64,000 bases of DNA from a virus (Duplodnaviria > Caudoviricetes): positions 1 through 64,000 of IMG/VR virus record IMGVR_UViG_3300034082_002867; one strand, given 5' to 3'. Below the pieces are notes generated by a model. It saw only the letters and a list, made by a program, of their open reading frames with translations. It did no database searches and was not told the DNA's origin. Shown in pieces: positions 22,909 through 30,719 of the stretch. Position 1 is the first letter of the stretch, and every line of letters starts with the position of its first letter. The position numbers were made by a program, and so were the translations under genes.

Positions 22909-23413
22909 ATAGAGCTTGTAAAAAATCTTGGTCTTTTTTGACCCAATGCAAGATTTTTTCGATACTCTTATTATTCAATTGGATGTTGTTTATTCCATAA
23001 AATTTAAATATTTCTTGGTACTTTAAATCAGGTTCTTGAACCGAGCCTTTTATATATTGTTGAATGAAATAAACATTTTTTATTTTTGAAGCAGCAATAG
23101 TTTTGGCGCAATGAACACACGGGCTGTAAACCATACAAGCGTAGTGCGGTTGACGAGATGCATATAAAATAGCATTGATTTCGGCATGATTAATTAAACA
23201 AGATTTAGTTTCGCGATCTTTAAAAACATCTTCTTTTGGTAAAAAACCGGGACCGAATCCGTTAAAACCAGTAGACACTGTTCGCCATTCTTGGTCGAAT
23301 AGCGCAACGCCTACTTGTGTGTGAGGATCTTCAGATCGCGATCTTGCAGAAAGAGCGATATAACATCCATATTCTGGTTTACTTAATCTTGGGTTATTCG
23401 GATTGAAACTCAT
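22895..23413 (-). CDS. dCMP deaminase
   Basis: RSEDPHTQVG, TGFNG, HAEINAI, PCVHCAK. Confidence 0.88.
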   Translation of the reverse strand: MSFNPNNPRLSKPEYGCYIALSARSRSEDPHTQVGVALFDQEWRTVSTGFNGFGPGFLPKEDVFKDRETKSCLINHAEINAILYASRQPHYACMVYSPCVHCAKTIAASKIKNVYFIQQYIKGSVQEPDLKYQEIFKFYGINNIQLNNKSIEKILHWVKKDQDFLQALYVKP

Positions 23414-24038
23414 AATACATTAATTCAGCATCCCCTGCGGTCCACTTGTGAGCGAGACCTTCACAGGAAAATTCTTTCGAAAACGGTTTCCATGTTTTCG
23501 CTTCTGGAGGTAGTTTATTAGATATCCATGCTCCACTGTCTCTAAAAATTATTCTGTTGTTTGGTTGAGCGAACATTTGTCCGCCTTCGCCCCAAAAAAT
23601 ATGAGCGCATTTGTGTCCAGCAGATATTTCAGAATAGCCTAAATTATAATCTTCACCATTGCACCAATCAATTGTGAATAGATATTTTGCAACATGCATT
23701 CTTTTATCTTTAAGATAAATATATGCGCTGCTATTTTTTAAATATTCAAATCTTTGAATTGTAAAATAATAACTATAAGTATCCCATAGTTGCAACCAGT
23801 CTAACTCATATTTGGTGATAGGTTGTTCACTATTGGAAAGATAATGAATAGGCACTCTGGCAAATTGTGCGCCGTATTCACTCATGACATTAAACATCAA
23901 ACATCGTCGAGGTATAGATACTATAGAAAATATTTCTACAGGAATAAATTTTCCTGTTGTTCTTGGCGCACTGTCATTAAGAAAAGAAGTATCTAAATAT
24001 CCTAACTGAGTTGGTATATTTGTCGATAGATAGCTCAT
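23394..24038 (-). CDS. Conserved phage hypothetical protein
   Basis: ORF track; YLFTIDW...HKC..I..GQMFAQPNNRI. Confidence 0.75.
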   Translation of the reverse strand: MSYLSTNIPTQLGYLDTSFLNDSAPRTTGKFIPVEIFSIVSIPRRCLMFNVMSEYGAQFARVPIHYLSNSEQPITKYELDWLQLWDTYSYYFTIQRFEYLKNSSAYIYLKDKRMHVAKYLFTIDWCNGEDYNLGYSEISAGHKCAHIFWGEGGQMFAQPNNRIIFRDSGAWISNKLPPEAKTWKPFSKEFSCEGLAHKWTAGDAELMYYEFQSE

Positions 24039-24223
24039 TATTCGCCTTTTTTAAACGACTCCATGAGATCATGCACGGATTTTAGCATCGTGTCAAGAGT
24101 GGCGATACGATTGGCGTAAAGATTTTCGGTTTTTATCTGTTCTTCTTTAATTAGTTTTTCGAGTTCTTTTATTTTTCTAAAAGTATTAACTGGTTTATTT
24201 CTTTCGAATTCAGATACGTTCAT
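24038..24223 (-). CDS. Hypothetical protein
   Basis: ORF track. Confidence 0.55.
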   Translation of the reverse strand: MNVSEFERNKPVNTFRKIKELEKLIKEEQIKTENLYANRIATLDTMLKSVHDLMESFKKGE

Positions 24224-24813
24224 ATTTTTTTATAAATAAAATACTTTTGCCATTCTTCTCTATTTTTTACTGGCTTGTTAGGGAGTACGGGAATAGGCAT
24301 TGGAACAGATTTTATATCGCGATTCTTATTGTCTAAAAATGGATATAAGTCTTTCTTTATTTGATTACACCGCGCACAGGTAAGCGTGATGTTTTCTATT
24401 TCTTTAGTTCCACCTTTGGAGCGTGGAAAGATATGTTCAACGGTCATATCTTTTTTATCAAATTGATCGTAACAAATTTGACAAGTATAATCAAAAATAA
24501 TGCATAATTTTTGAAGACTCAATGTGCGAGGCATTTTTTTTCTTTTTGAATAAAAAGAAACTTTGATAACAGCGGTAGTGGGTAAAAACCAAATTCTATC
24601 TTTAGAAGTTAAAAAAGGTTGATCTTCGTGAAAATCAATTCCCTGATTAGAAATCCATTGTAGATTGTTATCTATTAGATTTTCGCTCGCATCAAAGCAT
24701 TTGATATTATTTTTTATTAAATGCAAGAATGTAGCCCTACCCGTTAAAAAGGTGTAAGGCATAAACGAAGAATCTAAAAGTAAAGTGGTTATTTGATTAG
24801 AATAACTTGACAT
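24220..24813 (-). CDS. HNH endonuclease (McrA-like type)
   Basis: TLLLDSSFMP; CQIC..MTVEHIFPRSKGG..NITLTCARCN. Confidence 0.85.
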   Translation of the reverse strand: MSSYSNQITTLLLDSSFMPYTFLTGRATFLHLIKNNIKCFDASENLIDNNLQWISNQGIDFHEDQPFLTSKDRIWFLPTTAVIKVSFYSKRKKMPRTLSLQKLCIIFDYTCQICYDQFDKKDMTVEHIFPRSKGGTKEIENITLTCARCNQIKKDLYPFLDNKNRDIKSVPMPIPVLPNKPVKNREEWQKYFIYKKI

Positions 24814-24903: not shown

Positions 24904-25611
24904 TTAGAAGTTCCAGCGAACTCCCGCAATAGCAACTACATCACCGCTGAACTCTTGGCGTGCGAAGTTATACTTGGAAGACTGAAAATTATTGTCATAA
25001 TATCCAACTTCAGCATAAGGTTGAAGGTGATTAAAGAAAGTGCGAGAGACACCAATCTTGGCTGCTACGACATCATAATCAGTGAACTTGCCATATTCGA
25101 CAGCAGGAGTAACAGTAAACCAGCCGAACACATCGGTTGGGCGTTCAGCACCAACGATATAACCTGATTGACCAAGGTTAAAGTCATGTGAACCACGGAT
25201 GTAAGGAGTTAGATATGGATTTACCAAAGCAATCTTTGGAGCGATTTCAGTGGAATTACGACCTCCAAGAATTGAGCTTTGATGGCGAAGAACTTGCAAA
25301 TCACCGCGAAGGGAGAACTTTTCGGTAATCTTTAGAGCCTTACCAACACCCACCTTCCAATGAGATTCGTCGATGTTATTAGAATTAGGAAGAACGACAC
25401 CACCGACGTAAGCATCTACACCAAAATAGGTCTTTCCAATGTCGAAACCAGCAAATGCTGATCCGCTAGTCTTTGCTAGACCATTGACGATGTAGTGGTT
25501 GTTGTAACCAGCGTTAATACTGGCGTTGATTGTTGATTCCTCGGCATCCGCAGCAAAAACTGCGACTGAGGCTAGAACTGATACGATGAATAACTTAAAT
25601 GACTTAATCAT
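24904..25611 (-). CDS. Outer-membrane beta-barrel protein (TorF/TIGR02001-like)
   Basis: Signal peptide ending AVFA|A, alternating amphipathic strands, C-terminal VRWNF BAM motif. Confidence 0.8.
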   Translation of the reverse strand: MIKSFKLFIVSVLASVAVFAADAEESTINASINAGYNNHYIVNGLAKTSGSAFAGFDIGKTYFGVDAYVGGVVLPNSNNIDESHWKVGVGKALKITEKFSLRGDLQVLRHQSSILGGRNSTEIAPKIALVNPYLTPYIRGSHDFNLGQSGYIVGAERPTDVFGWFTVTPAVEYGKFTDYDVVAAKIGVSRTFFNHLQPYAEVGYYDNNFQSSKYNFARQEFSGDVVAIAGVRWNF

Positions 25612-25661
25612 AGGCGTATAATTTTACACCTTTTTAGCGAGAAGTCAACAAGTTTTTTTCG

Positions 25662-25883
25662 TCAAACGCCTTTTATTTTGTTCATTAAATAATTAGCCCC
25701 AACTGAAACCGCCGCAACTATTCCTGCTAAATAATATTTAAAATACTCAAGGCCAGCGACTCGCGTTTCTAAGTCTTTGTGGCTTTTTTTAATATCGTCT
25801 ATATTGTCAGAGATAGTATCTAATTTTTGTTCCATTCTTGAGAGAACAGCATCGTAACTATTATTTTCGTACTTGTCTGACAT
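25662..25883 (-). CDS. Small coiled-coil protein with C-terminal TM helix (holin/XhlA-like)
   Basis: SRMEQKLD..LETRV..LE then hydrophobic helix. Confidence 0.55.
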   Translation of the reverse strand: MSDKYENNSYDAVLSRMEQKLDTISDNIDDIKKSHKDLETRVAGLEYFKYYLAGIVAAVSVGANYLMNKIKGV

Positions 25884-25956
25884 GTAGTTTTTTACACTAG
25901 AAGCAGAGCTTTGGGAGCGTTGTTTTTTTAATGTTAAATTTTAGTATTTTTTAAGT

Positions 25957-26169
25957 CTATATAAAATAAAAAAGACCTTTAGAGTTATAAACTACTATTT
26001 TAATTTTAGTTTCATTGATCCTGTTTGAGCCAAGTATGTCAGTCACTTGAAAAGGGTCTGGAGTGGGGCTTATTGGAGCGGCCATAACTCTATCTTTTAC
26101 TTTATATATATCTAAATTAGTATCAACAATACTTGGATGGTATTGTCTTGTTAAAGGTGCCATTTTCAT
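25957..26169 (-). CDS. Hypothetical protein
   Basis: ORF track. Confidence 0.5.
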   Translation of the reverse strand: MKMAPLTRQYHPSIVDTNLDIYKVKDRVMAAPISPTPDPFQVTDILGSNRINETKIKIVVYNSKGLFYFI

Positions 26170-27938
26170 ATTGTTTTAGGTGTTGATTCTGTTTTTTTAA
26201 CCCTAGAAGTTGGAAACGCTTTGTTTCCAAAGTCAGATGCGTATAAGCTATATAATCTCATAATAACTCCATGTTTAACAGTAACGTCGCCAAGATCTTC
26301 GACTAATACATAATTTGGCCTATCGTATTTAGCTACAACATCAGAACTAACTAATAAATGATTAGTTTCTCCTGAATCCATTACTCTTTGTGCATAATTA
26401 ATTCCATCACCACTAATGTTTAAATTGCCATTGATATCTTCAAGCGGGCAAACATCGCCACAATGAATACCCATTCTCATTTCTAAATCTGGTCTATTTT
26501 TTACAGCTTTTGCTACGGTAATGCCACAATTGATAGCGTCTTCAAGATAAGTAAAAAATCCGAGAATCATTCCATCTCCTGTCGGTAGAACGATTAATTT
26601 TTCAAGTGCGTTTGCGGTTTTAAATTGTATAGTTGATTTAACTATTTCGCCCAAATCTTTAAAGCATTTTCTCTGCTCATCAGTGGTTTTTTTACTATAT
26701 CCAACTATGTCCATGAAAAAAATATAGCCATCTTGTATTTTGTCCAATTCAAGACGACTAGATTTAACTTCAGCATCAATAGCTGCTACTTGATTTATTA
26801 TTTTTTTAAGTGGTTTCGGAGCTTCGACTTTTTTAACTTCTTCGATTTTCTTTTCTTCGACGACTTTGTTTTTGCTTTTTAAAAATTCTTTCCAGTTGAT
26901 TGTTTTTTTATCTTTTTTCTTTGGATCTTTTGCGACTTCTTCTTCGTGTATTTTTTTTAATTTATCTTCTTCTTCATTTCTTTTATCAATATAAGCTTGC
27001 ATTTGTTTTTTAAATTCTTCGCTGATGTGAATTGTAACGTCTTTACCGTTGCCTCCATTGTCGATTTTTTTCTTTCTTGCCGCTCCTTTTAATTGAAGCA
27101 GTGTTTGCATTTTAATATTGCCGGTTTTAAAAGCCAAATCTAATGGAGCTATTTCGCCTTTAAAATCCGCTCCATTAACATTAGCTCCTAAACATATCAA
27201 AAACTCGACCATTTCTATATCGTTAGCGTTAACGGCATAATGAATAGGCATCCATCCATTTTTTTCATCCCTACCGTTTATGCGACCATCAACATCAAAA
27301 TACTTTTGAACACCTTCAAAATCTCCTGTTTCAGCACAAAAATGAAGGCTTGAACCACCAGAAGATTTTGCGCCAGCTTTAGTTAATATTCTTACTATTT
27401 CGCCTCTATTACCTAAAGCTAATACGTCTATTGGATTATTCTTTCCTAAGAAGTCTTTAGCGTTAACATCTGCACCTTTGATTAATAAATATTCTACAAG
27501 ATGTTTTTGTCCGTAGTGAGCCGCGTAATGCAGAGCGGTCCAGCCTTTTGCGGCATCAACTTCATTTAAAGTATGTCCTTTGTTCAACATCTCTTCGATA
27601 GAGACTATATCTCCATTTTTAGCGGCTAAATGAAAACTGCTACCACTGCCGTATTTTGCGCCACGTTTTTGAAGAGTATCAACAATTGATAAAAACCCTT
27701 TTTGTTCTGCAATATCAAGTGCTGTATTTTTACTTGTCCAGTCTTTACAATTAACATCAGCACCATGATTCAATAATAATTCAACAATTTCTTTATTGTT
27801 TTCTGACACGGCTACGATAAGAGGAGGGTTGCCGGTATCCTCATCTCTTTCGTTTATATTAACTTTATCTTTAACTATGCAATTGTAGACATTATCATAT
27901 AAATTGCGGCGGATATGAGTGAAAATATTAATTGCCAT
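26166..27938 (-). CDS. Ankyrin-repeat protein fused to class III nucleotide cyclase
   Basis: About 7-8 ankyrin repeats; K/E-rich linker; FMDIVGYSK, PTGDG, RMGIHCG, GDGINYAQRV. Confidence 0.9.
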   Translation of the reverse strand: MAINIFTHIRRNLYDNVYNCIVKDKVNINERDEDTGNPPLIVAVSENNKEIVELLLNHGADVNCKDWTSKNTALDIAEQKGFLSIVDTLQKRGAKYGSGSSFHLAAKNGDIVSIEEMLNKGHTLNEVDAAKGWTALHYAAHYGQKHLVEYLLIKGADVNAKDFLGKNNPIDVLALGNRGEIVRILTKAGAKSSGGSSLHFCAETGDFEGVQKYFDVDGRINGRDEKNGWMPIHYAVNANDIEMVEFLICLGANVNGADFKGEIAPLDLAFKTGNIKMQTLLQLKGAARKKKIDNGGNGKDVTIHISEEFKKQMQAYIDKRNEEEDKLKKIHEEEVAKDPKKKDKKTINWKEFLKSKNKVVEEKKIEEVKKVEAPKPLKKIINQVAAIDAEVKSSRLELDKIQDGYIFFMDIVGYSKKTTDEQRKCFKDLGEIVKSTIQFKTANALEKLIVLPTGDGMILGFFTYLEDAINCGITVAKAVKNRPDLEMRMGIHCGDVCPLEDINGNLNISGDGINYAQRVMDSGETNHLLVSSDVVAKYDRPNYVLVEDLGDVTVKHGVIMRLYSLYASDFGNKAFPTSRVKKTESTPKTI

Positions 27939-27939
27939 T

Positions 27940-28320
27940 TTAGTCTTGCTTTTTAAATCTACTTAGATCTAAGTTAGCAAGAGGCTTTTCAATATTTAAT
28001 GATGCTAGTCTTTCGTTTTGGACGACTAGTTTGCTGCCGCCCAAAACCTTTCCGTCAACAACATCGTATATGAAGAATACGGTCTTTGTTAAACCCACTC
28101 TAACTATTCTTCCAGGTTTACCATCTACATAAACGACATCATCTTCTTTATAATCATTTCCAACAAACATGAATAAAGCTGCGGCAAGTTTTTCGATACT
28201 AGACTTAAACATTAATGCTACAAGTCCAATAATAAATAACCAAACATATTTGCCGGTCAAATCTTGACCAGTTGATTCTAATACTTGTTGTGATATAACG
28301 TGTGCGTCGTTTGTGTTCAT
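27940..28320 (-). CDS. Truncated MscS-like protein (TM plus beta domain)
   Basis: TM helix then YKEDDVVYVDGKPGRIVRVGLTKTVF. Confidence 0.6.
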   Translation of the reverse strand: MNTNDAHVISQQVLESTGQDLTGKYVWLFIIGLVALMFKSSIEKLAAALFMFVGNDYKEDDVVYVDGKPGRIVRVGLTKTVFFIYDVVDGKVLGGSKLVVQNERLASLNIEKPLANLDLSRFKKQD

Positions 28321-28406
28321 ATAATCAGTTGTGTCATAACTGATTACACTAAAATAAATAAAATAGATTTTTTAAAGTTCTCCGGTATTTTTTAGTATAT
28401 TGCCGG

Positions 28407-29366
28407 TTATTTGATCCACTTTTGTTCTCTTAATATATTATCTATTAAATCTTTTTCATCGCTATCCATTTCTTTCTCGAAACGTTTTAGTAATTCATTT
28501 AATGGATATACTCTATCAGGAGATTCTTTCTGTTTTACTTTCAATTCTTGAATAACATCTACAATTTTAACAAGAGGAGATTTAAATTCATCAACCTTAT
28601 CTTTTGTTGCGAAATCACACATTTCAAAAGCTTTGGGAGTAAGAGCTTTAAGAATAGATATGATTGCAGATCCCAACATATTAAATATTGAGAATGCAGC
28701 GGCGGCAGCAGGATGAACCGTAGCCAATAAACGAAGAAGAACGAATACCACAACAAATACTAATATTGCAGTTAACGCGCTAACAATAAATTTCTTTAAT
28801 CCCCAAAATACTGCATTAAGACCAAACATTCCGCTCATTGAATCTAATACAGCTTTATTTTGATCAGCTTCTTTGGCTACTTCTTTAGCTTTATCGGTTA
28901 GTTGCCAGAGTTGATCGTCGTATTTTTGATTTAATTCTGATTTTTCTTTTTGAAGTTTATTTATTAGCTCGTCTCTTTGAGTTAATAACTCTTCGCCTTT
29001 TTTACGTTCTTCAACTAAAGCGGAGTTTAAAAGATCTACTGTAGCTTTAATTCTTTTTGTTTCGTCTATGTGAGGCGAACCGACAATGGAAATAACTCTT
29101 TCGTTCAATTTTAATGCCGTGTCTACTTGCACAGGAGCATTAGTAACTTGATTTAAAGAATGTTGAATGCCGATTGAAAGCCCAGAGGTTTGTATTTTCT
29201 TACCTTTGTCGTTCTTTTCGATTTCTACTAAAGTGTTATCTACTTTTTTTTCTTCTTTCGCGATAATCTTTTGATTGTCATCGATTTGTTTAGAAGGTTT
29301 AACAGTAGAAAAACATCCAGTTAATAAAAAAACCAATATAATAAATATTGGTAGCTTGAAAGTCAT
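28407..29366 (-). CDS. Lipoprotein with coiled coil and C-terminal TM segment(s); possible unimolecular spanin
   Basis: Lipobox LLTG|C17, heptad-rich middle, hydrophobic segment FIVSALTAILVFVVVFVLL. Confidence 0.65.
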   Translation of the reverse strand: MTFKLPIFIILVFLLTGCFSTVKPSKQIDDNQKIIAKEEKKVDNTLVEIEKNDKGKKIQTSGLSIGIQHSLNQVTNAPVQVDTALKLNERVISIVGSPHIDETKRIKATVDLLNSALVEERKKGEELLTQRDELINKLQKEKSELNQKYDDQLWQLTDKAKEVAKEADQNKAVLDSMSGMFGLNAVFWGLKKFIVSALTAILVFVVVFVLLRLLATVHPAAAAAFSIFNMLGSAIISILKALTPKAFEMCDFATKDKVDEFKSPLVKIVDVIQELKVKQKESPDRVYPLNELLKRFEKEMDSDEKDLIDNILREQKWIK

Positions 29367-29408
29367 ATCTATGATTACACAGATAATGATAAAAAGAAAA
29401 TATAAAAA

Positions 29409-30719
29409 TTATCTGCTTACTTCTTCCCAATCTATAGCCGCAAAAATAGTTTCATTACCAGTCGCAGCGGTAACAACAAGTGTTAATTCATTTGGAGTTG
29501 AAGTTAGACCGTTTCTTTCTAGTTGAAACTTAAAAACGGCTTCTCTGACAATGTCAATTGATGGAGAACCTCGATTTGATGAATTTAAAAATCCACTTGC
29601 AAGTATTCTTCCTCCGCTAAAAGAGGTTCCAGTGATATTATATTCAACTGCGCTATCGCTTCCAGCACTGACCCAAGTTCCTGCTGATGTTGTTCCGGCT
29701 ACTATTATTCGCCAATTGTAATTAATACCATTAGCAGTTCCCATCATAGAAAATGCAGTTGGAATCACAATTGCATCTAAAAAAGCACTTTTTAATCTTA
29801 TACTAATTATTGGATAATAAGTTCCAGCGGTAGTCAAAGCTCTTGGAGAGGTGATCGGTATATTTATTGATTGTTGCAATCCATTGAGTTCAAAACCGCC
29901 TTCAGAAACAACAGTAGAGCAAATTTGTTTTAATGTGCTATTACCAGAAGTTGCGGCAGTGTTTTTAATTTCATAACGAAGCGGCAAAGATGCTGATGTG
30001 ATATACGTTGAGGTTATTAAATTTGCATGATAAAATATATGACATAAAACAAACTGACCATTTATAACAAATCCTGTTCTAACAGAACCTACACCCAACC
30101 ATTCAATATCCATCCATAAAATTTGAGCTTTAGAAATGTCTAAAGTTAAACCAGAAGGCCCACTTCCATCTAACTTGTCGTTGCTCCAAGAAGATTGTGC
30201 TATTCTAGTATCTACTAAAACGCCGCTTACAGAACTTCTTTTAACTATATATAAAACAGAATTGGCGAGTTCAATATATATTCCATTATTAGCACCATAA
30301 TATCCAACTCTTTGACGAAGACCAGTTTTTGCTGATTGCATTACAAAGGTATTCATTACTAATAATGATTTTCCCGGTTGATAAGCAAACACTTTTACAG
30401 TTTCTCTAACTACTTCGGAATTAATAGTATTATCAACTTCTAAATCAACTAGACCTTCATTAGCGTCGAATGTTGCTGATGCTGTTCCTGTAGTCGCCGT
30501 ACTCCAAAGATTGTTATCCTTAAATCTATGAGAGCTATCAAATAAAGTAAAAGGATTTGAAACTCTTTGGCGACCAAAAGCATCATTAGATGGGTTCGTG
30601 ACTGAATTTCCACCGTAAAAATCACTATCCTTAAATGGTCTATAATACTCTTTTTGAGTATCATAAATCAAATTAGTATTTACATTTTGAGGAAACTGAG
30701 CGGCGAACAATTGAGCCAT
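29409..30719 (-). CDS. Beta-rich phage protein, probably virion structural
   Basis: DAFGRQRVSNPFTLFDS N-terminal motif; S/T/G-rich strands. Confidence 0.6.
   Translation of the reverse strand: MAQLFAAQFPQNVNTNLIYDTQKEYYRPFKDSDFYGGNSVTNPSNDAFGRQRVSNPFTLFDSSHRFKDNNLWSTATTGTASATFDANEGLVDLEVDNTINSEVVRETVKVFAYQPGKSLLVMNTFVMQSAKTGLRQRVGYYGANNGIYIELANSVLYIVKRSSVSGVLVDTRIAQSSWSNDKLDGSGPSGLTLDISKAQILWMDIEWLGVGSVRTGFVINGQFVLCHIFYHANLITSTYITSASLPLRYEIKNTAATSGNSTLKQICSTVVSEGGFELNGLQQSINIPITSPRALTTAGTYYPIISIRLKSAFLDAIVIPTAFSMMGTANGINYNWRIIVAGTTSAGTWVSAGSDSAVEYNITGTSFSGGRILASGFLNSSNRGSPSIDIVREAVFKFQLERNGLTSTPNELTLVVTAATGNETIFAAIDWEEVSR

Follow-up and report, generated by a model that had tools for sequence, protein, structure and literature searches.

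We analyzed a 64,000-nucleotide (nt) stretch of DNA, positions 1-64,000 of the IMG/VR record IMGVR_UViG_3300034082_002867 (Caudoviricetes) and hereafter the window, and focus on a minus-strand gene at 26166..27938 whose product joins ankyrin repeats to a class III nucleotide cyclase domain. This gene (P0001), which we call Ank-cyclase, was defined from the open reading frame (ORF) list and its translation; it runs from an ATG to a TGA (stop at 26166-26168) and encodes 590 amino acids (aa); the IMG/VR record G001 has a copy of 100% identity. An earlier note made from the sequence alone had proposed that ankyrin repeats, a linker rich in lysine and glutamate (K/E) and a cyclase make up a single protein, and both Pfam and AlphaFold2 bore out this architecture. 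All parts of the gene given below are on the minus strand.

The ankyrin domain occupies residues 1-290 (27069..27938). Five Pfam Ank families matched residues ~11-290 with E-values from 1e-23 to about 1e-36, an AlphaFold2 model built on a 58-sequence alignment has nine helix-hairpins over residues 5-283 at a predicted local distance difference test (pLDDT) score of 80-90, and a Foldseek search with the whole-protein fold returned ankyrin proteins only, the best matches being designed ankyrin repeat proteins (DARPins) and ankyrin-B/R. By Pfam, helix pairs and Foldseek alike, this is a tandem array of helix-turn-helix ankyrin repeats. The repeats had been recognized earlier, although as 7-8; counting the AlphaFold2 helix pairs gives about nine, the first of which is probably a cap. 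We presume that the domain is a protein-binding or regulatory module.

Between the two domains lies a linker (residues 291-399; 26742..27068), delimited by AlphaFold2 secondary structure and pLDDT, that consists of a 31-residue helix (307-337) followed by a K/E-rich stretch that is disordered (340-393). No other part of the protein is as poorly conserved as this linker, with 51-59% identity between clades. A conserved segment, EVKSSRLELD, directly precedes the catalytic domain, and residues E390, V391, S393, R395, L396, L398 and D399 do not vary among 11 orthologues from phages and bacteria. Behind the catalytic domain, conservation defines a C-terminal tail (residues 567-590; 26169..26240) with the motif FGN..FP..R, which is common to cellular members of the subfamily described below; G571, N572 and P576 vary little or not at all among phage and cellular sequences.

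The catalytic domain and its relatives

The catalytic domain (residues 400-566; 26241..26741) was placed by a domain model, structure matches, HMMER residue mapping and a codon check. It is a compact alpha/beta domain in the full-length AlphaFold2 model and, when modeled alone from 75 sequences, reached a pLDDT of 93.9. The domain model has the beta-alpha-beta-beta-alpha-beta catalytic fold and matches class III cyclases of solved structure, among them Rv1264 (1y10; Z 19.6), a eukaryotic guanylate cyclase (3et6; Z 19.4), Rv1900c (1ybt; Z 19.0) and 3mr7 (Z 18.0); the superpositions on 1y10, 3et6 and 1ybt align 158-167 residues at 2.4-2.7 A, and the Foldseek E-value to 1ybt is 3e-11. PF00211 (Guanylate_cyc) matched residues 479-562 with an E-value of 8.8e-5 and 22.6 bits, the curated cut-off being 21.9.

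HMMER alignments to 3mr7 and 1ybt were used to assign the catalytic residues. D410 (in FFMDIVGY; 26709-26711) and D455 (in LPTGDG; 26574-26576) align with the metal Asp residues of both structures, and the transition-state residues N514 (26397-26399) and R518 (26385-26387) both lie in GINYAQR. Conservation counts further mark an invariant K555-H556 pair (in VKHG; 26271-26276), and we infer that K555 is the phosphate-binding Lys of the beta7-beta8 turn. D410, D455, N514, R518 and K555 are invariant in the 11 orthologues. All of the motifs cited earlier from the sequence (DIVG, LPTGDG, NISGDG and GINYAQR) were thus recovered, with their metal Asp and transition-state residues in place. At the two positions that select adenine, the phage protein has Leu451 (26586-26588), where 3mr7 has Lys and Rv1900c has Asn342, and Asn507 (in NLNISGDG; 26418-26420), where 3mr7 and Rv1900c both have Asp.

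The fold, the two metal Asp residues, the transition-state Asn/Arg and the PF00211 profile by which class III cyclases are recognized are therefore all present. The domain has neither the Lys and Asp/Thr that select adenine in adenylyl cyclases nor the Glu and Cys (or Gly/Ser) that select guanine in guanylyl cyclases; with Leu451/Asn507 at the specificity positions, it is not filed as an adenylate cyclase on sequence. We nevertheless consider it quite probable, from its conserved residues, that the domain is a catalytically active cyclase. On the strength of precedent in related enzymes, we would put the chance that its main product is cyclic AMP (cAMP) at about even.

The replacement of the adenine-selecting residues had been picked out in the earlier note as non-canonical; the replacement itself is real, but it is not a peculiarity of this protein. 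A full HMMER search with the 206-residue cyclase domain against 1.84 billion cluster representatives gave 5501 matches at E<=1e-3 and 529 at E<=1e-30. The close relatives of the phage protein all fall in one 50% cluster, and the next 149 representatives are 38-49% identical to it across the whole catalytic domain. Among the 150 nearest representatives the Lys position holds Leu or Ile in 148 and the Asp position holds Asn in 147, while D410, D455, R518 and K555-H556 are present in all 150 that were aligned and N514 in 149. Since Leu/Asn is near-invariant in these cellular proteins, the pair says nothing special about the phage. Phage and cellular members also share a longer signature (FMDIVGYS, (L/I)PTGDG, N(V/I)(A/S)GxGINxAQR, VKHG and the FGNxxxP tail), and on these alignments the phage catalytic domain is assigned to a large cellular subfamily of signaling cyclases. 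PF00211 was matched by 61 of 63 subfamily members (best E 4e-30). The domain partners found in 62 sampled members include TPR (about 30), Ser/Thr kinase (13), WD40/PD40 propellers and FlgO/TolB-like parts. In 102 of 154 representatives the cyclase comes first and a long sensor makes up the C-terminal part, whereas in the phage protein the cyclase is C-terminal, behind the ankyrin repeats.

Among solved structures, the best sequence matches were soluble mycobacterial class III (IIIc-type) cyclases and 3mr7, at 22-26% identity. Rv1900c/LipJ (1ybt/1ybu), Rv1264 (1y10), Ma1120 (4wp3/4wp9) and 3mr7 (Silicibacter pomeroyi) have the same fold as the phage domain (Z 15.3-19.6). In the mycobacterial and 3mr7 enzymes the metal Asp and the transition-state Arg are co-located with those of the phage protein, and the dimerization arm is compact in both. 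The enzymes differ at the specificity pair, which is Leu/Asn in the phage protein, Lys/Asp in 3mr7 and Asn/Asp in Rv1900c, so that Rv1900c likewise lacks the canonical Lys; in Ma1120 the specificity residues are K101/D157 (PMC4215837). The transition-state Asn is kept in the phage enzyme and is His in Rv1900c. They also differ in their regulatory part, an ankyrin solenoid in the phage protein and a hydrolase-like or pH-sensing domain in the mycobacterial cyclases. A Gln-Asn specificity pair was reportedly the subject of a study by Castro et al. (FEBS J 2005), on Rv0386. Enzymes of the Rv0386 type, which we compared by description, resemble the phage protein in having Asn for the adenine-selecting Asp together with a partner other than Lys. 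This partner is a Gln, which can form hydrogen bonds, whereas the Leu of the phage protein cannot, and the 'amide switch' proposed for Rv0386 is therefore not transferable as such. In a mycobacterial class III cyclase of the Rv0386 group, both adenylyl and guanylyl activity are said to depend on the Gln-Asn pair (cited in 10.1101/2024.03.06.583649).

The phage and the distribution of the gene

The window is a phage, as the earlier note had supposed for the gene. All of its long ORFs are on one strand, it has 10 transfer RNA genes, its guanine-plus-cytosine (GC) content is 27-38% throughout, and matches in PHROGs include RIIA, a virion structural protein, a DnaE-type polymerase, a DnaB-type helicase and a Lon/Clp-like ATPase. 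In a relative whose Ank-cyclase is 79% identical, genes for T4-type gp23, portal, prohead protease, gp13 and gp15 lie at a distance of a few kb. None of the cultured phages is a close relative; the polymerase is 26% identical to that of Streptomyces phages, and the virion structural protein (29409-30719, minus strand; phrog_1645) is 64-65% identical to proteins of Synechococcus myoviruses (cyanomyoviruses) and of the podovirus HMO-2011. As a side observation, the genome is a mosaic of T4-like structural genes and non-T4, DnaE-type replication genes, the latter 26% identical at best to those of cultured phage. Ank-cyclase itself has the composition of its phage, with a GC content of 0.34 overall and 0.23 at third codon positions (GC3), the corresponding values for the bacterial copies being 0.61 and 0.80. 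A tblastn search of 50,697 deposited phage genomes gave matches over the ankyrin region only, to ankyrin proteins such as those of Wolbachia WO phage and the sponge 'Ankyphage', and none to the cyclase part, and PHROGs had no family for the cyclase part or for the 126-aa and 70-aa proteins encoded next to it.

An assembly labeled 'Gammaproteobacteria bacterium strain CCP3-SC1AL1' holds the gene at 98% identity. The contigs in question (C179 and C457 of assembly G005; L028-L033) have a GC content of 33%, compared with 44-48% in sampled contigs of the assembly, and are 90-94% identical to the window at 24.4-38.1 kb, over 12 kb. Given this composition and this identity to the window, we take them to be phage DNA in that assembly, which is either mis-binned or a hint at the host.

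The gene is under purifying selection. In comparison with a copy of 92% nucleotide identity (L029), the nonsynonymous and synonymous rates (dN/dS) were 0.012/0.257 overall, a ratio of about 0.05, with 0.006/0.241 for the ankyrin part and 0.022/0.268 for the cyclase part. All words sampled from the stretch were found in 14 lake-water metagenome runs, and part of them in six metatranscriptome runs of five studies. Contigs assembled from four metatranscriptome runs, each from a different study, cover the gene at 99% identity or more, and one 1355-nt contig from an RNA library spans three downstream genes together with the 3' end of the cyclase; these contigs fit transcription of the gene in lakes. 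Ank-cyclase is almost certainly a real, expressed and selected phage gene.

The full architecture is present in more than 115 clusters of a 5.8-billion-protein collection, with cyclase parts 62-97% identical. By amino-acid composition about 100 of these clusters are of an AT type and 12 of a GC type; those of the AT type that were looked up lie on phage contigs and those of the GC type on bacterial chromosomes. A survey of viral sequences, which had been suggested with the original description of the fusion, found 76 IMG/VR contigs of up to 296 kb and 29-36% GC that carry the gene in the same place, and the catalytic motifs are intact in 71 of their 72 full-length copies. Two near phage clades are 68-75% identical with no motif lost. 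In a far phage clade (P0138 and P0139), five or six ankyrin repeats and a K/E linker precede a cyclase with unchanged motifs; identity to the window protein is 43-46% over the cyclase and 30-40% over the ankyrin repeats. Relatives of these two are found on seven IMG/VR contigs, the longest of 201 kb, with 35-38% GC. These far-clade contigs have at least five other genes in common with the window phage, at 25-51% identity. Since the far clade keeps both the architecture and other genes of the window phage, the architecture must be old in this phage group. On one short marine contig with a far-clade Ank-cyclase (L114:2561-4211), P-II and ammonium-transporter genes lie on the opposite strand and there are many small ORFs.

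Orthologues of ~70% identity lie in a few bacterial genomes, which a scan of one genome per species identified as metagenome-assembled genomes of Verrucomicrobiota/Verrucomicrobiales. Two of these (P0035 and P0054) occupy a syntenic chromosomal site on contigs of 62-65% GC, one of them 194 kb long, in the order lpoB, kdsB-like, ligA, Ank-cyclase, FGE-sulfatase-like, HDOD gene, channel gene, fliS-fliD-motAB. The gene is nevertheless no common host gene: only 3 of 81 genomes of the Verrucomicrobiota family have it, as a single copy with no paralogue of the subfamily. The carriers encode one to four further PF00211 matches and seven to nine proteins that bind cyclic nucleoside monophosphates (cNMP). 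A divergent GC-type copy (P0116), 57-62% identical, adjoins gltB/gltD in a separate contig of bacterial origin.

When the cyclase domain alone is rooted on cellular outgroups, the topology varies with outgroup sampling, the phage copies being either paraphyletic or monophyletic at a support of 49, and a single bacterial clade stayed compatible with the data in an approximately unbiased (AU) test (p 0.63). In a quick tree of the full-length proteins, for which the far phage clade served as root, P0116 branches first, followed by an unordered three-way split of Verrucomicrobiota and two phage clades with supports of 96-99 each. On these sequence comparisons two transfers would be needed whichever the direction. 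One direction would make phages the long-term home of the Ank-cyclase gene; its diversity is much greater in phages, it is rare in bacteria, and the 126-aa neighbor is kept in both phage clades. The other would be a cellular origin of the catalytic domain itself, consistent with a cyclase subfamily that is cellular. The best explanation for the orthologues would be that the gene was exchanged at least once between the phage lineage and Verrucomicrobiota, and the exchange would be old, as phage and bacterial copies each match the composition of their own genome (GC3 0.23 versus 0.80).

Neighboring genes and local organization

Directly upstream of Ank-cyclase is a minus-strand gene (P0272; 27940..28320) whose translation is a 126-aa protein with one transmembrane (TM) helix and a small beta domain. 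The gene's stop codon ends 1 nt before the cyclase start (TAA-A-ATG). The protein is 83-89% identical in L004, L007 and L008 and is encoded directly upstream of the cyclase in 72 of 75 IMG/VR loci, and in four of the seven far-clade loci the cyclase has a homologue of this protein, of 35-37% identity, within 1-3 kb. A label of 'MscS-like' was considered for it and set aside, the match to MS_channel_2nd (E 0.036; 14.6 bits against a cut-off of 20.2) being a hint only. Directly downstream, also on the minus strand, is a gene for a 70-aa protein (P0273; 25957..26169), known from its translation and with no family found, whose ATG overlaps the TGA of the cyclase (ATGA). This protein is represented by 41 clusters at 69-99% identity and is encoded directly downstream of the cyclase in 60 of 72 IMG/VR loci; a link to the WAC domain was discarded, the best ESM Atlas score (0.85, to eukaryotic clusters) being at chance level. 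Neither gene was found beside the bacterial orthologues.

A GTGTAA box, a candidate phage promoter element, lies 24 nt before the 126-aa gene (28344..28349, minus strand). The same box precedes genes for a 319-aa lipoprotein, a 73-aa protein and a 235-aa protein, and is not found ahead of the cyclase or the 70-aa gene. In the window it occurs 22 times on the coding (minus) strand versus 12 times on the other, and within 25-30 kb all four minus-strand copies stand 9-24 nt before a start codon. No terminator-like site was found on the minus strand in 25400-29600. Given the tight junctions and a GTGTAA box only ahead of the 126-aa gene, the 126-aa, cyclase and 70-aa genes may be one unit, of which the 126-aa gene is probably the first.

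Two further genes behind GTGTAA boxes flank this unit on the minus strand and may be lysis genes. One encodes the 319-aa lipoprotein (28407-29366), in which the lipobox LTGC, a long coiled coil and TM segments toward the C-terminus were recognized, and which is 65% identical in L004 and present in 70 of 76 IMG/VR loci; the other encodes the 73-aa protein (25662-25883), which has a C-terminal TM helix and a weak likeness to XhlA.

Farther downstream, between the cyclase block and a dCMP deaminase gene, there is an HNH endonuclease gene (24220-24813, minus strand; Pfam HNH_5, E 2e-14) that looks like a mobile insertion in a variable spot, relatives having other genes there. A 214-aa protein (23394-24038, minus strand) matches phrog_3704 ('ferredoxin', host-takeover category; E 6e-43) and no Pfam family, and homologues of it at 25% identity adjoin the far-clade Ank-cyclase in two loci (L121 and L122). 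In one locus of the second near clade there is a second cyclase of 450 aa (L007:12744-14096), three genes downstream of Ank-cyclase. Its motifs are canonical (FSDIEGFT, KFIGDAVMAF and TVTGDTVNLASR), with the Lys present and Thr at the Asp position, and its N-terminal region has a probable TM segment. By tblastn it is found in 5 of the 61 IMG/VR loci that have room for it; it is absent from the window, where the 73-aa, 235-aa and HNH endonuclease genes stand in its place.

Proposed role and alternatives

We favor the possibility, to which we would give a probability of roughly 0.6, that Ank-cyclase is a homodimeric sensor cyclase that is made during infection, produces cAMP (possibly cyclic GMP, cGMP) and is controlled by a partner of its ankyrin domain. 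In this scenario the phage would express a soluble, sensor-type class III nucleotidyl cyclase in the infected cell. Given the fold and what is established for class III enzymes, the protein would be a head-to-tail homodimer in which each active site takes D410, D455, L451 and K555 from one chain and N507, N514 and R518 from the other and holds two divalent metals, and as in its family it would convert a nucleoside triphosphate into the 3',5'-cyclic monophosphate. The product would most likely be cAMP, perhaps with some guanylyl activity on the side, given that Leu/Asn takes the place of Lys/Asp as the specificity pair. The architecture suggests that the ankyrin solenoid serves as the regulatory input by binding a host or phage protein, and that the helical linker and EVKSSRLELD would pass its state to the catalytic dimer and so gate it. 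The cyclic nucleotide might then act on cNMP-binding regulators of the host and reprogram the infected cell. Candidate receptors exist: the Verrucomicrobiota carriers and the gammaproteobacterial assembly with related phage contigs each encode 5-9 cNMP-binding proteins. The gene is an old, selected resident of a lineage of large aquatic phages, in a tight three-gene unit with a small membrane protein and the 70-aa protein, and its product would work in the manner of the modular sensor cyclases of bacteria. As to its purpose, takeover of host cNMP signaling is a tentative proposal that we put at a little under even odds; rewiring of host second-messenger signaling, as already proposed in the earlier note, is our best guess.

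Several points weigh against this scenario. The purine-contacting Lys of canonical adenylyl cyclases is absent, and the PF00211 match is marginal and spans model positions 94-178, i.e., only the C-terminal half of the model. In the literature searched we found no assay of any member of the Leu/Asn subfamily, and the activity and product are therefore inferred; moreover, as Leu cannot replace the Lys contact and Asn both donates and accepts a hydrogen bond, specificity may be loose or different. The RNA-library contigs may hold carried-over DNA and give neither strand nor level. A scan of ten neighboring genes gave no receptor for cNMP, no phosphodiesterase and no other partner in such a pathway. 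L008 has two genes between the 126-aa gene and the cyclase, so adjacency of the two is not obligate, and conservation of the neighbors could reflect general synteny of related phages, not function. Finally, the hints at a host conflict and none is decisive: gene sharing points to Verrucomicrobiota, co-assembly to a gammaproteobacterium of 45% GC, and the virion protein is like those of cyanomyoviruses and HMO-2011.

The most probable of the alternatives concerns the product. An active enzyme whose main product is not cAMP, but cGMP, cCMP/cUMP or another nucleotide, would imply a distinct chemistry of the subfamily and a private phage messenger. Neither the adenine (Lys/Asp) nor the guanine (Glu/Cys) pair is present, the near-invariance of Leu/Ile and Asn in 150 representatives suggests selection for a specific substrate contact, and in Pycsar the class III fold makes cCMP/cUMP by means of clade-specific residues that sequence rules do not predict (PMC11224242). 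The Pycsar structures are, however, farther from the phage domain (Z 13.9-16.0) than are ordinary cyclases of the adenylyl and guanylyl kinds (Z 17-19.6), the match to the PycC profile is slight, and the pyrimidine residues of PycC (Y50/D94/R97; F100/R142/Q144; F60/K104/F109) have no evident counterpart, except that a general Phe stands two residues ahead of the first metal Asp. The closest precedent with Asn that has been assayed is also said to make cAMP with cGMP as a side activity, and we regard a different main product as rather unlikely. A more elaborate version, which we consider unlikely, is a circuit owned by the phage in which a non-cAMP messenger, set by a host or phage protein that the ankyrin domain senses, would be read by the 126-aa TM protein or the surrounding lysis-type genes and would time lysis or exclude competitors; the circuit would later have been passed to a few bacteria. 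At the other extreme, the protein could be a pseudo-enzyme, a nucleotide-binding scaffold without cyclization whose ankyrin domain does the work, e.g., by sequestering a host protein. Inactive ATP-binding proteins of class III cyclase type do exist (6yii is in the fold list), the specificity Lys has been lost, and the ankyrin domain is constrained at least as much as the cyclase domain. Against this, the metal Asp residues, the transition-state Asn/Arg and the phosphate Lys are invariant in phage, bacterial and far-clade copies; such invariance over very deep divergence is not expected of a dead enzyme, and we hold this reading to be distinctly unlikely.

The earlier note had also raised interference with cyclic-nucleotide immunity, and this we were unable to support. 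A defense or counter-defense device would flood or mimic Pycsar- or CBASS-like signals, or act as a sensor for abortive infection or superinfection exclusion. Cyclic nucleotides are bacterial immune signals attacked by phage nucleases (PMC9117128), a protein-binding sensor joined to a cyclase formally resembles a sensor-effector layout, and PADLOC ankyrin models match the N-terminal part (PDC-M72A, E 5e-29), although on the ankyrin part only, a generic repeat. PycC (7r65, 8jsz, 8jsf) does share the superfamily fold, the two metal Asp residues and non-canonical base-selecting residues with the phage protein. Yet the PADLOC PycC profile matched 20 residues only (domain residues 93-113; E 0.014; 12.5 bits), and whereas Pycsar lies in defense islands with an adjacent effector, the phage gene is on a lytic-type phage without one: no cNMP_binding, TIR or comparable domain was found in the ten flanking ORFs, and no TM-effector gene adjoins. 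By profile and by adjacent effector alike, Ank-cyclase is not Pycsar-like. In addition, the anti-Pycsar and anti-CBASS proteins that are known work by degrading or sequestering signals and not by making them, and the bacterial orthologues stand among housekeeping genes (ligA, kdsB-like, flagellar), not in defense islands. We judge a defense role to be as improbable as a pseudo-enzyme. An effector directed at eukaryotes, similar to those of the sponge-symbiont 'Ankyphage' or the Legionella Ank proteins and altering cAMP in a grazer or animal, is very improbable. Ankyrin repeats are typical of such effectors and NCBIfam Legionella Ank effectors were weak matches, but these are far under the cut-off (74 bits versus 600) and on the repeat only, the N-terminus has no evident signal peptide or secretion signal, the habitat is lake plankton, and the cyclase is of the bacterial signaling type, not the class II toxin type. 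That Ank-cyclase is simply a host gene, whether on a bacterial contig, through misassembly or as a recent useless passenger, is hardly credible. The Verrucomicrobiota orthologues and the 98% copy in an assembly labeled Gammaproteobacteria might suggest it; however, the window is viral throughout, GC and GC3 are phage-like, 76 IMG/VR contigs have the gene in the same place under purifying selection within phages, and the 'gammaproteobacterial' contigs are phage DNA.

There is some precedent for the sensor cyclase that we favor. Adenylate cyclase genes have been described in uncultured pelagiphage genomes, within a curli/type VIII secretion system-FecR-histidine kinase-adenylate cyclase (curli/T8SS-FecR-HK-AC) cluster (PMC9599517). 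As with Ank-cyclase, the phages are uncultured and aquatic, the cyclases are read as regulators of host behavior, and they are known from sequence alone. They differ in context, since curli, FecR and histidine kinase genes are not beside Ank-cyclase in the stretch scanned, and in having no ankyrin fusion; the comparison covered gene context and architecture. Conversely, the ankyrin proteins of Wolbachia WO phage and ANKp of the sponge 'Ankyphage' place ankyrin repeats on phages but have no cyclase domain. Among the papers searched, none described a fusion of ankyrin repeats to a cyclase in phages or bacteria and, in line with what had been noted before, none had a phage example that has been characterized biochemically. 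The present analysis adds orthologues on Verrucomicrobiota chromosomes, a second deep clade of phages, figures for selection, evidence from RNA libraries and gene junctions that resemble an operon.

Cyclic nucleotides are usually seen as the cell's own signals or as immune alarms that phages destroy. Strong selection on a complete sensor-cyclase over deep divergence in a widespread lineage of large lake phages would mean that making a cyclic nucleotide during infection pays off. The subfamily to which the catalytic domain is assigned comprises hundreds of 50%-identity clusters with TPR, kinase and WD40 sensors, and in its base-selecting residues it departs from the adenylyl and the guanylyl rule alike. 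At ~200 aa and confidently folded, the catalytic domain should express easily, and one product assay would settle the chemistry of the whole subfamily. An exchange between phages of 33% GC and Verrucomicrobiota of 63% GC would be a rare clue to the hosts of an uncultured phage group, and the partner of the ankyrin domain would show what a phage 'listens to' inside its host.

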